Notes: generated from the sequence alone by a model not told the origin. DNA of 64,000 nucleotides from an uncultured euryarchaeote (GCA_937899865.1 CALBRH010000025.1:1-64000), one strand, 5' to 3'; shown: positions 6,691-11,976, counted from the stretch's first letter. Translations and numbers: made by a program.

Positions 6691-8466
6691 TTATTCAGCA
6701 AAAAAGATTTCAAAATCATCTTGCCAAGTAATTCCCGTAGAATCAAACCAAGACTTGGCATTTGGGAAAGACTTTGTTGCATCTTTACGTTTTTGTTTGA
6801 CCCGTTCACCGATTAATTTCCATGCTGACTTAGCACCAATGCCAGGGATTGCTGAAAGTTGCTTCTCGCTGATTGTATCATGATTCATTGAACATTCAAC
6901 CCCGGTAATCGAACGTGCTCCGTGGCCGGTGACTACAATATCAGAGGTCGTCTCAAGTGGGATGAGATATTCTGCTCCAATTAAGATAGGATAAGCACCA
7001 ATTTGTCTGCCAAAGGTAATGCCTGATTTGCCTCTAATCTCTTCACCAATATGTGGCTGATTTAGATGGACAGGTAGTCTTGTTCTACCATTATGGGATT
7101 CCCAATGAACCTGCTTTAGCACCTCTCCTTTAGGAAATAATTCTTCGAGCAGTGGTGCATCAATATCATCTCTTACCGATTGTTTAAACTTTGAAAATTC
7201 ATGTTCAGGTATTTCTTGAAAACCTTCACCTTCGACCTGCCTAATGTTAATTCTTCTAAGTAACAGGTTTTCATTGCGTATTTCATGTAAGAGGTCAAGA
7301 TTTTTTTGATAAGTTATTGAAGTTTCACCATTTAATCCAGCGATAAAGTTCAATCCAGGTAGTAGTTTTGGTAAGCCTCTTTCACCTCTTGCAGAGCCAT
7401 ATTTGTTGATTAAGCGAATAGCAGATTTCAGCTGGGAAGCATCACAATTCAACCAATTTGCTTCATGTACTACGCTATCGGCTGATTCTAAACCAAATGA
7501 CAGAACTGCTCCATCAGATAGTGTGTCTACAAGTGTCTTAGTAATCTCTTCAGAGGGTTCTAAATTTTCAGCAATAATCGATGGATTACCATTGTCAGTA
7601 TGCAAAATCTCCAATCGTTCATCATTTCTCAAACCATGTAATAACTTAGCAATCGGCTCTGGATTAGGAGTGGGATATTCTAACTCTTTTACACCATCAG
7701 CCATGTAGGTGTAAGTATCAGTCATACCTCCAAGCCGAACATGCTTTACACCTAATTCATGTGCAATTCTAACCTCTTCTATAATGTCTTCAGGACTACG
7801 CCAAATCGGCACACCTTTCTTTGGCTCAATGCAAAACTTACATCCACGTTTGAACCTTACACAGCCTTGGTAAACTTCTACTTCATATGTTAGTGGCCCG
7901 GGTTTTTCTTCACTTCCTAAGTCTGGGTGGAATTTGACTGCCTTACTATTTGCTCCATAATGTGCCCACTCAGTCCATTGTTCAGCATTGCGACGACAAT
8001 GTTTCCAATTACCAGTATTCAAGAAATTGTTAAGCGTAGCATCAGTATCTTGTACTGCTAAAAACAGATTCTTGCGCAATGGATTCCAACCTTGCTGACG
8101 CCAGCCCCGAATAGCCCAGCCGCCCAATATAGCGGGAATTTCGCTTGGTAAATTTCGAACAATATCTTTCATTTCATTGATGGAAATAGGAGTTCCTCGC
8201 AGATATTTGCCTGGAACTACCGCACCAGCAATACAAGCAAAACCGTCAAGACTTTCCATCAGTTTTTCGACACCAATAGCACCTTTTTGTCTAACAAATT
8301 CACGCCATTGATCTATTGTCATATATCGGTAATCCAAATTGTGCTGCTCGAGTACCCCGCATAGGTAGCGAATATGAAATCCAACATAAGGTGGAACTCC
8401 AAATGCAGCAGGTTCATCTTCATAGCCGTCGAGTACCAACCATTTCGGCGTTGTTTGCTCGACCAT
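6691..8466 (-). CDS. Radical SAM protein with TRAM-like and C-terminal helix-hairpin-helix domains (COG1031-like)
   Basis: N-terminal LDGYEDEPAAFGVPPY, spaced cluster motif GCVRFKRGCKFC, RRINIRQV, GRQIGAYPIL, and HhH LSAIPGIGAKSA. Confidence 0.8.
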   Translation of the reverse strand: MVEQTTPKWLVLDGYEDEPAAFGVPPYVGFHIRYLCGVLEQHNLDYRYMTIDQWREFVRQKGAIGVEKLMESLDGFACIAGAVVPGKYLRGTPISINEMKDIVRNLPSEIPAILGGWAIRGWRQQGWNPLRKNLFLAVQDTDATLNNFLNTGNWKHCRRNAEQWTEWAHYGANSKAVKFHPDLGSEEKPGPLTYEVEVYQGCVRFKRGCKFCIEPKKGVPIWRSPEDIIEEVRIAHELGVKHVRLGGMTDTYTYMADGVKELEYPTPNPEPIAKLLHGLRNDERLEILHTDNGNPSIIAENLEPSEEITKTLVDTLSDGAVLSFGLESADSVVHEANWLNCDASQLKSAIRLINKYGSARGERGLPKLLPGLNFIAGLNGETSITYQKNLDLLHEIRNENLLLRRINIRQVEGEGFQEIPEHEFSKFKQSVRDDIDAPLLEELFPKGEVLKQVHWESHNGRTRLPVHLNQPHIGEEIRGKSGITFGRQIGAYPILIGAEYLIPLETTSDIVVTGHGARSITGVECSMNHDTISEKQLSAIPGIGAKSAWKLIGERVKQKRKDATKSFPNAKSWFDSTGITWQDDFEIFFAE

Positions 8467-8491: not shown

Positions 8492-9889
8492 TCAATCCTT
8501 CTTGTGTCTTGGCTTGCGCTTGCGCTTTTTACCATCTTCAGCCTCTTCACGAATAGCTCTTAGTTCACGAGAACTTTTTGCTGGTTTTCCGTCTTTTTGA
8601 CCGCCACCTTTCTTTTGTGAGACATCAACACGAATTTTCCTACCTAGTAATTCGGAACCATTTAGTTGTTTGATGACTTCATCACCCTTGTCTTTTTCTT
8701 TGAGGGTTACGAAAGCAAAGCCCTTTGGCCTACCTCCATTATCGGTGACAATATTTACATCAACGACAGTACCATGTTTACTGAATAATTCTTGCAAAGC
8801 GTCTTTTTCTGCCTTGAATGGGAGATTGCCAACATAAAATTTCATGCCTTCAACCTCTCTTCGACCTTTATTCTTACCTTTCTTGTCATCGCTGTCAGCA
8901 TCTCTGACACCAATTCTACGACCATTGATTCGATGCCCGTCTAATTCCTTAGCAGCTGCTTCAGCTACTGATTTTTCATGATAAGTAACGAATCCAAATC
9001 CTCGGTTAGCGCCACTATCATCGGTTGGGACAAAGCAATCCGCCATATCGCCGAATTTAGAGAACATTTCACGTAATTCCTCTGTGCCAATTTCTCTTGG
9101 TAAACCGCCAACAAATAATTTACAGCCAGGTTTTGCTTTTTGACGCTGACCACCGGTAGATTGTTGTCCTTCAAAGCGGAAATAATTGCGCTCTCGACCA
9201 TCTTCACGGAAATCTTCTGAAATGAATGTCGCACGGCCGGATGGTCCTTTGGCAAATAATGCTTCAGCCTCACTACCCCAGCGCTTGCCAGAGTTGTTTA
9301 GCACGCTTGCACCTTGGTCAAGTTCAGCCCAGCCAGCGCCAAAGTTATCCGCAAGCGCTCTAAATGAGCGATACTCACAACTTTGACAATTAACATTCCA
9401 ATCACCTTGTGCTTCAGCAACTAAAGTATCTCCACAGGATGGGCAAATTGCATGTAATACGCCACAATCATCTCGTTCTCTAAAATCAATTCTTACCACT
9501 GGTGAGACTTCTTTGATTTGAGCACGACAAATATCTCTACGACGAACCGCATCTGCGGTTTGATGCATGTATCGATCCACTAGTCCAGTGACATGAAAAT
9601 GTCCATACAGATGGGTAGGTAAAAGGTCACCAGGTTTGCCTTCAACGCATAGGATTCTAGCCTCACCATTCTTTTCATTGAGTTTCTCAATTTGACAAAT
9701 AACAGTGTCTCCAACACTTGGAGTTAGAACCTCTTTGACCGGAATAACGGAGCCTACACCATTGTCGATACTGAAATTTCCAACCATAGTAGCCAAGATT
9801 AGGCCATCAACTTCTATTGTTCCTTCACCAGCCTCACATTTAGAAGTGGTTGATACTTGCATTCCTGGGGTGACGAGGCTCGCCGTCAT
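8492..9889 (-). CDS. csl4: Exosome cap protein Csl4 fused to two RRM domains and a basic tail
   Basis: N-terminus LVTPG...GEGT, S1 domain (PSVGDTVICQI, RRRDICRAQI) and zinc ribbon (CPSC...CQSC). Then RRM1 KLFVGGL...RGFGFVTY, RRM2 KFYVGNL...KGFAFVTL and a KKRKRKPRHKK tail. Start moved to ATG 9889. Confidence 0.85.
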   Translation of the reverse strand: MTASLVTPGMQVSTTSKCEAGEGTIEVDGLILATMVGNFSIDNGVGSVIPVKEVLTPSVGDTVICQIEKLNEKNGEARILCVEGKPGDLLPTHLYGHFHVTGLVDRYMHQTADAVRRRDICRAQIKEVSPVVRIDFRERDDCGVLHAICPSCGDTLVAEAQGDWNVNCQSCEYRSFRALADNFGAGWAELDQGASVLNNSGKRWGSEAEALFAKGPSGRATFISEDFREDGRERNYFRFEGQQSTGGQRQKAKPGCKLFVGGLPREIGTEELREMFSKFGDMADCFVPTDDSGANRGFGFVTYHEKSVAEAAAKELDGHRINGRRIGVRDADSDDKKGKNKGRREVEGMKFYVGNLPFKAEKDALQELFSKHGTVVDVNIVTDNGGRPKGFAFVTLKEKDKGDEVIKQLNGSELLGRKIRVDVSQKKGGGQKDGKPAKSSRELRAIREEAEDGKKRKRKPRHKKD

Positions 9890-9998
9890 TGTCTTACATC
9901 CTAAGCAATTGTGGCCCGATGTAGGTCGCACAATCTTCGCTTATGTCGATGGGCGGGTTTATCCCTTTTGAATCCATCATACGGAATGCCAACTAATC

Positions 9999-10652
9999 TC
10001 AATCCTCTAAATCCGGTATTTGAGCGTCACCAGGTTTGTGGAAACGCCAACACTTGACTTCAGTTTCACCCATTTTTCTACTTTGATGTGAATATTTTGG
10101 CGGTAGTCTGAAGTTACTTTGGAATACAATTTCATTTTCATAACCATATGATTTGCCTAATTCTTCTAAATGAGTTGCTCTAGCAGAATGCATAACATAC
10201 ATTGATTTTGGTTGTAATTCAAATCCGTATTCCAATAATGGGCGGTCAGCTTTACTATTTTGGAAACCCCAAGGTGGATTCATAATTACAATGTCACAAG
10301 AAATCTCTTTTGGAGGCTCATCAACACCAATCATACAGTTGATCGTATTGATATTAACAGAATATTTGGCCATAACATTAGCACTATTTTGTATAGCGAC
10401 TTTTGCTACATCATCATCTGCTTCAATTAATATCACATTACTTGCTCCTAAAATCCCACAACCGATTCCCAATATTCCATTACCAGCACCAATATCGACA
10501 ATGGTTTTGTCATTGAGAGAATCAAGTTGGTCAACCGCTAAAGCAAAAAAAGCTGCCAAATCTCCTTCTGTAGCATATTGCTCAAGGTTAGCAGAATGCT
10601 GAGGATGTGGAGTTAATTTGGACAATTCAATGGCCAAATGTTTGGGCCGCAA
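9999..10652 (-). CDS. METTL5-like N6-adenine RNA methyltransferase (COG2263-like)
   Basis: LEQYATEGDLA, SAM-binding DIGAGNGILG and catalytic NPPW motif; this family is commonly found next to csl4 in archaea. Confidence 0.85.
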   Translation of the reverse strand: MRPKHLAIELSKLTPHPQHSANLEQYATEGDLAAFFALAVDQLDSLNDKTIVDIGAGNGILGIGCGILGASNVILIEADDDVAKVAIQNSANVMAKYSVNINTINCMIGVDEPPKEISCDIVIMNPPWGFQNSKADRPLLEYGFELQPKSMYVMHSARATHLEELGKSYGYENEIVFQSNFRLPPKYSHQSRKMGETEVKCWRFHKPGDAQIPDLED

Positions 10653-10656
10653 GACA

Positions 10657-10923
10657 TCACCAACCTGGTGATCTGTATTGTTGATTATTCATTCTGGCAG
10701 CGGCTTCAGATTGTTGGCGCATAGCTTCTAAACGAGCGTACGCATCATTCTGTGCATTCACTTGTTGCTGTTGCATTTGAATACGTAGAAGGCGAATCTG
10801 TTCTGCCTCGGAGCGTAATCTTGCAAGTAATTGTTCGCTAGGCTGAGCCGTGCCACAAAACCGACAGAATCTAACACCGTCATGGTGTTGGTTGCCGCAA
10901 TTAACACAAAAGCCCATAACCAA
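10657..10923 (-). CDS. Small double-zinc-ribbon protein with Gln-rich coiled-coil tail
   Basis: CVNC-x10-CRFC followed by a helical Q/R/E-rich segment. Confidence 0.65.
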   Translation of the reverse strand: MVMGFCVNCGNQHHDGVRFCRFCGTAQPSEQLLARLRSEAEQIRLLRIQMQQQQVNAQNDAYARLEAMRQQSEAAARMNNQQYRSPGW

Positions 10924-10956: not shown

Positions 10957-11976
10957 TTATTGCATGGCCGTTAATTGAAGGAAGACCGGCCATGTTTCAA
11001 AACCAGTCGCCATTGCGCGTTCGCTAATATCTTCCCATCGTGGATCATCCATCATGTCAGAAGGCTCTACCCCTGCTTCAATTAATTCAGTTACTAATGC
11101 TCTAAATTCAATTTCAACATCAGACATTTCAACAATTTCTTCCTCTTCTTCGAAAACAGGAATTTCAACGTTATCAACTGCAATAGGAGCTTGGGATAGT
11201 TCTACTTCATCGACAATAGGGATTTCTTTAACTATGTCCGAAGGTAATTTTACATTGACTACTTCTTCAACTTGTGTGGTAATATCTTCCATCATTTGAT
11301 TGGAGAAATTATCCAAAACAGCATCAAGTTGGGCTTCCTCTTCAGTTTTTATTTGTGGAGGCAAGGCCTCAACAGGAGCTTCTTGTATGGTTATTTGTGA
11401 TTTTTTGACCAACCTTCCTACACCGAGAACTTCAGCCTGTTGTCTTGCTAATTCAGCAGCCTGTCTACGTGGTAGTGATACGAAACATTTGCCAGGAATT
11501 GAATTTGGTGGGAATGGGAGGTAGTAATTGTCCAATTCTTTAACTTCTGGATGTCTAAAACATAATACATTCATCATCTCAAAAGGACGTTGTGCAGGTA
11601 AACCCATGGAAAAGGGAACTGGCATAACATTAATTGTCCCGCGTAACCATTTTTCTTGTCCTATCAAATGTTGCATCCAAGGTCCTAAATCTAAGCTGGC
11701 AATATCTACGAACTGGAAAGAAGCAGAACGTGAATCAAAGCCTTGGTCTTCGAGAAGTTTTGCTTCATCTCTTGGTCGATGGAAAACAGTCATGACCGGT
11801 TGTCCATGTTCAACCATATCGCCATGCAACTCCATCATTTTACGATGATTGCGAGGAAACATCAACAATATTAACATCCGTGCAGCCTTTTCATCCCAAA
11901 TTTCATCCCATCTGGATTCGGCTTCAACATATAGTTGGCCAATGGTCATGTCCGGTATCATTGCGGTGATTCCCAT
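10957..11976 (-). CDS. Hypothetical protein (globular N-terminus, acidic linker, small C-terminal helical domain)
   Basis: 339-aa ORF co-oriented with and tightly packed between neighbours; no family recognised. Confidence 0.65.
   Translation of the reverse strand: MGITAMIPDMTIGQLYVEAESRWDEIWDEKAARMLILLMFPRNHRKMMELHGDMVEHGQPVMTVFHRPRDEAKLLEDQGFDSRSASFQFVDIASLDLGPWMQHLIGQEKWLRGTINVMPVPFSMGLPAQRPFEMMNVLCFRHPEVKELDNYYLPFPPNSIPGKCFVSLPRRQAAELARQQAEVLGVGRLVKKSQITIQEAPVEALPPQIKTEEEAQLDAVLDNFSNQMMEDITTQVEEVVNVKLPSDIVKEIPIVDEVELSQAPIAVDNVEIPVFEEEEEIVEMSDVEIEFRALVTELIEAGVEPSDMMDDPRWEDISERAMATGFETWPVFLQLTAMQ

Follow-up and report, generated by a model that had tools for sequence, protein, structure and literature searches.

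The window analysed here is a 64,000-nucleotide stretch of DNA from an uncultured euryarchaeote (GCA_937899865.1 CALBRH010000025.1:1-64000), a marine archaeon of Marine Group II (MGII), the Poseidoniales. Its minus strand carries a single open reading frame (ORF), here called csl4-RRM, that joins the exosome cap subunit Csl4 to two RNA recognition motif (RRM) domains. The extension beyond the Csl4 core consists of a conserved 70-residue module, the two RRMs with a Lys-rich spacer between them, and an acidic helix with a basic tail. The parts of the gene, in window coordinates, are:

8492..9889, minus strand: the whole csl4-RRM gene (465 aa plus stop), a single ORF with its ATG at 9889
9341..9889, minus strand: Csl4 core, residues 1-183 (N-terminal domain, S1 domain, zinc ribbon), from NF034126, 2BA1_A and the AlphaFold2 (AF2) model
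9377..9445, minus strand: zinc-ribbon cysteines C149, C152, C168 and C171, from an alignment of 31 sequences
9125..9340, minus strand: conserved module, residues 184-255, earlier called a linker, from alignment conservation and AF2
8885..9124, minus strand: RRM1, residues 256-335 (RRM_1 75.5 bits, canonical RNP2/RNP1)
8846..8884, minus strand: Lys-rich inter-RRM spacer of 13 residues, from dN/dS and model confidence below 50
8606..8845, minus strand: RRM2, residues 349-428 (RRM_1 69 bits, canonical RNP2/RNP1, model confidence about 80)
8495..8605, minus strand: C-terminal tail, an SRELxAxREE helix followed by a K/R run, from the alignment and the AF2 helix at 440-453

The sequence-only reading of this locus had described one frame holding Csl4, two RRMs and a Lys/Arg tail, and profile searches bear this out, with its boundaries off by a few bases at most. 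The N-terminal part exceeds the cut-off of the NCBIfam Csl4 equivalog NF034126 (96.9 bits against 90), with residues 5-183 covering profile positions 2-178 of 180; the match occupies window positions 9341-9877 and rises to 99.7 bits when the genome itself is scored. Pfam RRM_1 (PF00076) matches the protein with an overall E of 2.6e-40 in two stretches, 8912-9118 and 8630-8836, and both domains lie far above its gathering cut-off of 20.7 bits. The textbook RNP motifs that had been claimed for each RRM are present in the translated sequence: LFVGGL (RNP2) and RGFGFVTY (RNP1) in RRM1, FYVGNL (RNP2) and KGFAFVTL (RNP1) in RRM2. The aromatic residues are kept in both, F391 and F393 of RRM2 being conserved in at least 90% of aligned sequences, and these canonical RNP1/RNP2 aromatics argue for ordinary single-stranded RNA binding. 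The four zinc-ribbon cysteines are invariant in 31/31 aligned sequences, canonical Csl4s included, and the C-terminus is rich in Lys and Arg. An in-frame GTG at 9931 would lengthen the protein by 14 aa; the MTASL start is common to most homologues.

The AF2 model, built from the 31-sequence alignment, has a mean predicted local distance difference test score (pLDDT) of 75 and a predicted template modelling score (pTM) of 0.40. Predicted confidence is 80-92 for the Csl4 core (residues 1-183) and about 80 for RRM1 and RRM2. Residues 194-219 are predicted to form two short helices (pLDDT about 77), and residues 440-453 of the tail a further helix, while residues 216-252 fall below 50 despite their conservation. 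The low pTM combined with well-folded domains fits a beads-on-a-string protein with no fixed inter-domain arrangement. The sequence-only reading depended on the N-terminal part modelling as Csl4, and it does so: the best Foldseek match in the PDB is Archaeoglobus fulgidus Csl4, 2ba1_A (E 1e-15, target TM-score 0.67 over 183 columns), and a profile search of PDB sequences aligns residues 2-177 of the 179 in 2BA1_A with E 2.5e-39. Ranked after 2ba1_A in Foldseek are the tandem-RRM proteins Sxl, HuR/HuD and hnRNP A1.

The segment between Csl4 and RRM1, previously taken for a linker, is present as described, but it is not a mere spacer, for residues 184-255 are conserved throughout the order. Within the window's family, residues ~195-250 are highly conserved, and a core of the form L-N-x-x-G-x-R-W ... 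A-E ... D-x-R is kept across the order; G201, R203, W204, E209 and D226 are conserved at 90% or more in both families. The module is order-specific; canonical Csl4s end ahead of it and lack it. It has no match in Pfam, NCBIfam or the ESM Atlas. The part of it that is both conserved and predicted to be disordered is typical of a partner-binding peptide.

To gauge how widely the fusion occurs, 151 genomes were sampled across the order Poseidoniales. It is convincingly present in 149 (150/151 if any match is counted), among them single-contig genomes. A search of this kind had been named as a check by the sequence-only reading; Csl4 and the RRMs are thus not separate genes in all relatives. By family, the counts are 73/74 for the window's family, 2/2 for a small second family and 73/74 for a sister family. 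Of the two genomes lacking a convincing match, both 93% complete, G016 (window's family) gives one only at E 6.6e-4 and G039 gave no fusion match. Among the 74 genomes sampled from the window's family, full-length homologues are 43-92% identical, and the matches mostly align residues 1-465 without a stop; a few run past a stop or end at a contig edge. More than 500 protein clusters likewise show the full-length layout; they come from metagenome-assembled genomes (MAGs) of 'Candidatus Poseidonia' and 'Euryarchaeota archaeon', and their source names include 'Csl4', 'RRM-containing protein/Csl4' and 'nucleolin'.

Selection was examined by comparing the window gene with five congeners at 73-91% amino acid identity. 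The nonsynonymous rate (dN) is far below the synonymous rate (dS) in all segments, the junction module included, with the sole exception of the 13-residue spacer, whose dN/dS is about 0.5-1 in most of the five comparisons (range 0.17-1.04). RRM1 is the most constrained segment: measured against L004, the closest congener, its dN is 0.005, where the Csl4 core has 0.053. The inter-RRM segment behaves as a true flexible spacer, and the Csl4-RRM fusion is real, order-wide and under purifying selection.

An artefact, whether a misassembly at the junction or a read-through of adjacent csl4 and rbp genes, had some appeal at first sight since in certain database records a shorter Csl4 precedes an RRM protein of 191 aa encoded on its own (P0139). 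The split in P0139 was rejected as a separate-gene form: a 1-nt frameshift lies just before RRM1 on a pilon-polished long-read contig of 1.5 Mb, and the reading continues unbroken in another frame. Its twin was likewise rejected, being a contig of 935 nt that opens with 48 nt foreign to the locus and resembling sequencing adapter. Short RRM-only database proteins (90-250 aa, the majority from contigs of 0.5-3 kb, with 58-93% identity to the query) were also considered as separate genes and set aside as fragments. Set against an ORF that runs without internal stops in 149/151 independent assemblies, some of them single contigs, and a junction segment with dN far below dS, an artefact is exceedingly improbable. 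Misassembly in particular, the hazard named by the sequence-only reading, is ruled out by the order-wide occurrence, the closed genomes and the purifying selection.

The order has at least three fused layouts, the two-RRM form among them. Following the Csl4 core, these are:

window's family (f1): module, RRM, RRM, helix and K/R tail
small second family (f2, L014): layout as in f1, its own two RRMs being mutual closest relatives (100/97)
sister family (f3): module, RGG, CxxC-x17-CxxC zinc knuckle (PF23477/TIGR04272), one RRM, RGG tail
P0257: one RRM, K-rich stretch, RELxAMxEE helix

The f3 layout was taken from seven loci inspected directly (L009-L013, L015 and L016). There the zinc knuckle, a treble-clef with RGG repeats on both sides, stands ahead of the single RRM, and an RGG tail takes the place of the SRELxAxREE helix. 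The SRELxAxREE motif is kept in all forms without a zinc knuckle, that is, in all two-RRM forms and in the one-RRM P0257. Csl4, the conserved module and one or more RRMs are thus what the forms in the order have in common.

The window's genome (2.0 Mb, 65 contigs) is 91% complete. It encodes SBDS-Rrp4-Rrp41-Rrp42 as a canonical operon on contig 51, with SBDS first; Rrp41 scores 327.9 bits against a cut-off of 318.7, and Rrp4 and Rrp42 are also encoded. Archaeal DnaG lies on contig 28 (364 bits against a cut-off of 300). An exosome is thus available for a Csl4 cap. Within the 91% that the assembly covers, no second Csl4 was found, and no RRM_1 other than the two in the fusion. A bacterial-type RNase PH of 274 aa also occurs (G000 contig 48: 15671-16060, minus strand; locus L021:1114-1935), matching TIGR01966 at 238 bits (cut-off 141.5). 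The match is broken into two stretches, as an insertion might cause. A bacterial-type RNase PH alongside a full exosome is unusual and may reflect horizontal transfer.

Because the fusion is real, order-wide and strongly selected, the Poseidoniales exosome probably carries its own RNA-catching arms. Our preferred reading, to which we assign a probability of about 0.7, is that Csl4-RRM is this organism's sole Csl4 cap subunit of the exosome and, throughout the Poseidoniales, bears a permanent RNA-recruiting arm. Assembly on the exosome, RNA binding and an effect on substrate choice are steps that we infer, and the built-in substrate-selecting adaptor of the sequence-only reading has the same standing. 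By homology with A. fulgidus 2BA1, the Csl4 core would take its place on the Rrp41/Rrp42 ring and bring its S1 domain to the pore. The zinc ribbon lies at the periphery of the cap in the 2BA1 structure, so the extension would be expected to emerge there, as a tethered arm present in up to three copies per cap. Two flexible stretches could set both RRMs and the basic tail above or beside the S1 pore. The RRM beta-sheets and the basic tail would capture single-stranded RNA, multivalently, and the local concentration of 3′ ends at the pore would rise. Such capture would bias which RNAs undergo phosphorolytic decay or A-rich tailing, and a job done in trans by DnaG in Sulfolobus or by RRM cofactors in eukaryotes would be hard-wired in the Poseidoniales.

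The distribution of the RRMs bears on how they came to be part of Csl4. A census of RRM_1 matches in genomes at least 90% complete within the class gives two RRMs per genome in the window's family and one in the sister family, all of them in the csl4 frame; G016 has none and G144 two extra weak matches. Nine of nine genomes of the sister order have exactly one stand-alone RRM ORF of ~103 aa, and nearly every Poseidoniales genome searched yielded no RRM gene outside the fusion. The sister-order Csl4 at L029 (genome G176, the one checked) is canonical: 184 aa long, it ends right after the zinc ribbon. This distribution, one free RRM per genome in the sister order and RRMs only inside csl4 in the Poseidoniales, suggests that the lineage's single free RRM protein became fused to Csl4 at the base of the Poseidoniales. 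Alone in the window's family, G144 has an extra small RRM_1 ORF besides its fusion, on contig 15 (1843-2067, minus strand; a 111-aa open frame, 38.8 bits). This may be a free RRM gene, which would be a rarity, or it may stem from contamination (estimated at 2%).

For comparison, 200 further genomes were sampled across the phylum. In those that lie outside the order, Csl4 is ~185-220 aa long and lacks an RRM; the claim that archaeal Csl4 is normally short and without RRMs accordingly stands, canonical forms elsewhere measuring ~185-200 aa. The companion claim that RRMs are rare in archaea does not hold for this lineage, where they are not so rare: in addition to the one free RRM protein per genome in the sister order, they occur in other Thermoplasmatota. 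Free RRM ORFs of ~90-130 aa are found in several families outside the order, and nine that were inspected directly are 84-96 aa long. A search of residues 1-250 against 1.84 billion cluster representatives returned no independent Csl4-RRM fusion, the extension being confined to the top, Poseidoniales-type clusters. Nine other long Csl4-like proteins were scanned, and neither an RRM nor any further domain turned up in the additional sequence; at least one of the nine, P0298, resembles a read-through.

The RRMs of the fusion look bacterial, or Rbp-like, by NCBIfam NF058537 (Rbp_regulator), which the protein matches at 114.5 bits against a cut-off of 100, a score summed over its two RRMs; the single sister-family RRM scores 86.4, below that cut-off. 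A PABP-like identity was considered and rejected: TIGR01628 (PABP-1234, four RRMs plus PABC) gives 93.4 bits against 497.1, and the protein has two RRMs and no PABC. The match to yeast Pab1 (6r5k) in the PDB is generic tandem-RRM similarity. An RRM phylogeny, suggested earlier as a way to separate bacterial Rbp from eukaryotic ancestry, was run on 79 columns. It places the sister-family RRM with RRM1 (92/78) and RRM2 among free bacterial-type RRMs, and an approximately unbiased (AU) test rejects neither a grouping of the sister-family RRM with RRM2 (p 0.36) nor a single clade of all fusion RRMs (p 0.40). The tree of this length thus settles neither donor nor order of events, and its firm point is the L014 pair (100/97), which indicates a duplication or conversion of its own.

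On another reading, Csl4-RRM would act mainly off the exosome, as a free Rbp-like RNA chaperone or regulator that gained an S1 domain and a zinc ribbon, with the cap formed by Rrp4 alone. The NF058537 score and the small stand-alone Rbp-type proteins of the sister order are compatible with this, as are the archaeal exosomes with a homotrimeric Rrp4 cap that exist in vitro (PMC3672285). The Csl4 part is, however, full-length over the equivalog cut-off, its zinc cysteines are invariant and its dN is low, and the genome holds no other Csl4. An order-wide loss of the Csl4 role with every Csl4 feature kept would be unparsimonious, and we consider an off-exosome protein decidedly improbable.

A further proposal extends the preferred reading of Csl4-RRM as an exosome cap subunit with an RNA-recruiting arm. 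The sister order's free small RRM protein could be an unrecognised exosome cofactor that acts in trans via Csl4, and the Poseidoniales could have hard-wired this partnership, in the manner of a 'Rosetta stone' fusion, and diversified it for sequence-selective targeting. The two-RRM forms and those with a zinc knuckle and one RRM would be products of such diversification, a prokaryotic counterpart of the eukaryotic RRM adaptors. On the same reasoning, bacterial Rbps may pair with PNPase. We regard this proposal as possible and advance it tentatively.

The gene neighbourhood is conserved. A row of same-strand genes, encoding a zinc-ribbon protein, an NPPW methyltransferase, csl4-RRM and a radical-SAM protein, recurs in relatives. 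The immediate neighbours are:

9999..10652, minus strand: NPPW-motif small methyltransferase, 217 aa (Pfam MTS, Cons_hypoth95), directly upstream
6691..8466, minus strand: radical-SAM protein, 591 aa (Pfam Radical_SAM, E 4.7e-10), 25 nt downstream

The NPPW methyltransferase also precedes the fusion in L042 and the canonical csl4 of the sister order (L029:1-378). Since the latter lacks an RRM, the pairing of methylase and csl4 is older than the RRM fusion. The radical-SAM gene follows the fusion in both the window's family and the sister family. The likeness of its product to MiaB/RimO is weak (28.9 bits), and its probable cluster motif is C-x6-C-x2-C (CVRFKRGCKFC), not CxxxCxxC. One sister-family genus (G013, G053, G031, G085) and G043 have csl4-RRM and the radical-SAM gene apparently in one frame, with open frames of 964-1106 aa; L010:1847-5164 (G013 contig 57), the locus of this kind that was inspected, has a single stop codon between the two genes. 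The shared frame may be chance (one in three) or may bear on read-through. Upstream of the methylase, the zinc-ribbon protein of the row (10657-10923, minus strand; 88 aa) has a Gln-rich, coiled-coil-like tail, and the product of 10957-11976 (minus strand), 339 aa long, is very acidic in its C-terminal half and matches nothing in Pfam. No tRNAs were found in the 64,000-nt window, and a scan for sigma-70 promoters and terminators, a model not applicable to an archaeon, stayed at chance level.

This neighbourhood bears on another possibility, that the RRM arms tether or regulate the exosome rather than select substrates for decay. They could hold it at rRNA, ribosomes or nascent transcripts, where it would take part in processing or A-rich tailing, or form an autoinhibitory lid on the S1 pore that is freed by a partner of the 184-255 module or of the C-terminal acidic helix. 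The gene always lies between a small methyltransferase of the rRNA/tRNA type and a radical-SAM enzyme, and the first gene of the exosome operon encodes SBDS, which acts in ribosome maturation. The 184-255 module and the SRELxAxREE helix are conserved, and the best-conserved parts are predicted to be disordered or isolated, as partner peptides would be. The retained DnaG could still supply a preference for A-rich RNA (PMC4227792). On the other hand, the methylase neighbourhood is found at the RRM-less Csl4 of the sister order as well, so nothing about it is specific to the RRMs. The canonical RNP1/RNP2 aromatics point to single-stranded RNA binding and not to a protein-binding pseudo-RRM, and the AF2 model (pTM 0.40) does not dock the RRMs on the Csl4 core. 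A tethering or regulatory role thus appears unlikely.

Several points weigh against Csl4-RRM as an exosome cap subunit with a substrate-recruiting arm. The dN/dS values are rough because synonymous sites are saturated. Since DnaG is retained, the RRMs supplement it and have not simply taken over from a lost cofactor. The likeness of the RRMs to those of PABP, Sxl, HuR and hnRNP A1 is of a kind generic for tandem RRMs. Finally, the best-conserved stretch of the 184-255 module is predicted to be disordered.

The sequence-only reading knew of no description of a Csl4-RRM fusion, and a full-text literature search, in which not all journals are covered, likewise found no paper describing one, only annotation tables. 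One such row, from supplement 4 of a metatranscriptome study on MGII, gives a MAG gene the name 'Csl4' and an RRM Pfam match and leaves the fusion uncommented at that entry (PMC9723583). The few non-zero columns of the same row are, going by the row itself, presumably transcript abundances (PMC9723583).

What is known of the archaeal exosome comes from a handful of thermophile models. Their Csl4 is a simple cap protein of three domains, and preference for particular RNAs is conferred by Rrp4 and DnaG. An archaeal group that ranks among the most abundant of the surface ocean has rebuilt this cap subunit throughout an order with RRMs, the module by which eukaryotes direct their exosome in trans. 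If the proposed function is correct, Csl4-RRM would be a natural exosome adaptor in cis, open to reconstitution with and without its arms, and it would bear on the control of RNA turnover in uncultured marine archaea. A prediction that can be tested also follows: the free RRM proteins of archaea should be cofactors of the exosome. The fusion is a clean synapomorphy of the Poseidoniales and allows an annotation fix, as the proteins are now filed as 'Csl4', 'nucleolin' or 'polyadenylate-binding protein'.

Compared with known systems, Csl4-RRM is closest in its first 183 residues to canonical archaeal Csl4 (A. fulgidus AF_0206, PDB 2BA1/3M7N/3M85), sharing the same layout of N-terminal domain, S1 domain and four-Cys zinc ribbon, and it has the small-methyltransferase neighbourhood in common with the canonical csl4 of the sister order. 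It differs in a small DWNV insertion in the zinc ribbon and in its 282-residue C-terminal extension, whereas canonical Csl4 (~184-200 aa) ends just after the zinc ribbon.

A precedent for added RNA-binding capacity via Csl4 exists in Sulfolobus solfataricus. The cap in model archaea consists of Rrp4 and/or Csl4 on the Rrp41/Rrp42 ring (PMC3672285, PMC4227792). S. solfataricus Csl4 has no poly(A) preference on its own and DnaG is recruited for that purpose; DnaG depends on Csl4 to bind the exosome, to which it brings affinity for A-rich RNA and the ability to tail rRNA (PMC3672285, PMC4227792). The Csl4-DnaG exosome likewise gains extra RNA-binding capacity through Csl4, as is predicted here from the genes. 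The extra module is, however, a separate, non-covalently bound DnaG in Sulfolobus, while in the Poseidoniales the RRMs are in the same polypeptide and DnaG is still encoded.

RRM cofactors of the eukaryotic exosome act in trans: RBM7 of the NEXT complex and Nrd1-Nab3 are recruited through helicase adaptors. There, too, RRMs bring particular RNAs to an exosome whose cap includes a Csl4 orthologue, but they do so as separate proteins, and we know of no eukaryotic Csl4 (EXOSC1) with an RRM. The cyanobacterial and other bacterial Rbps (NF058537) consist of one RRM of ~80 residues that shares these RNP motifs, and their tails are rich in Gly and Arg; one RRM of the fusion has 41-54% identity to bacterial Rbp-type RRMs. 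Rbps are free proteins of ~85-130 aa, whereas the Poseidoniales RRMs occur only inside Csl4. Bacterial PNPase, a phosphorolytic ring of the RNase PH type, has KH and S1 domains fused to its catalytic chain. It thus likewise carries covalent RNA-binding domains, which in the Poseidoniales are instead RRMs placed on a separate cap subunit.

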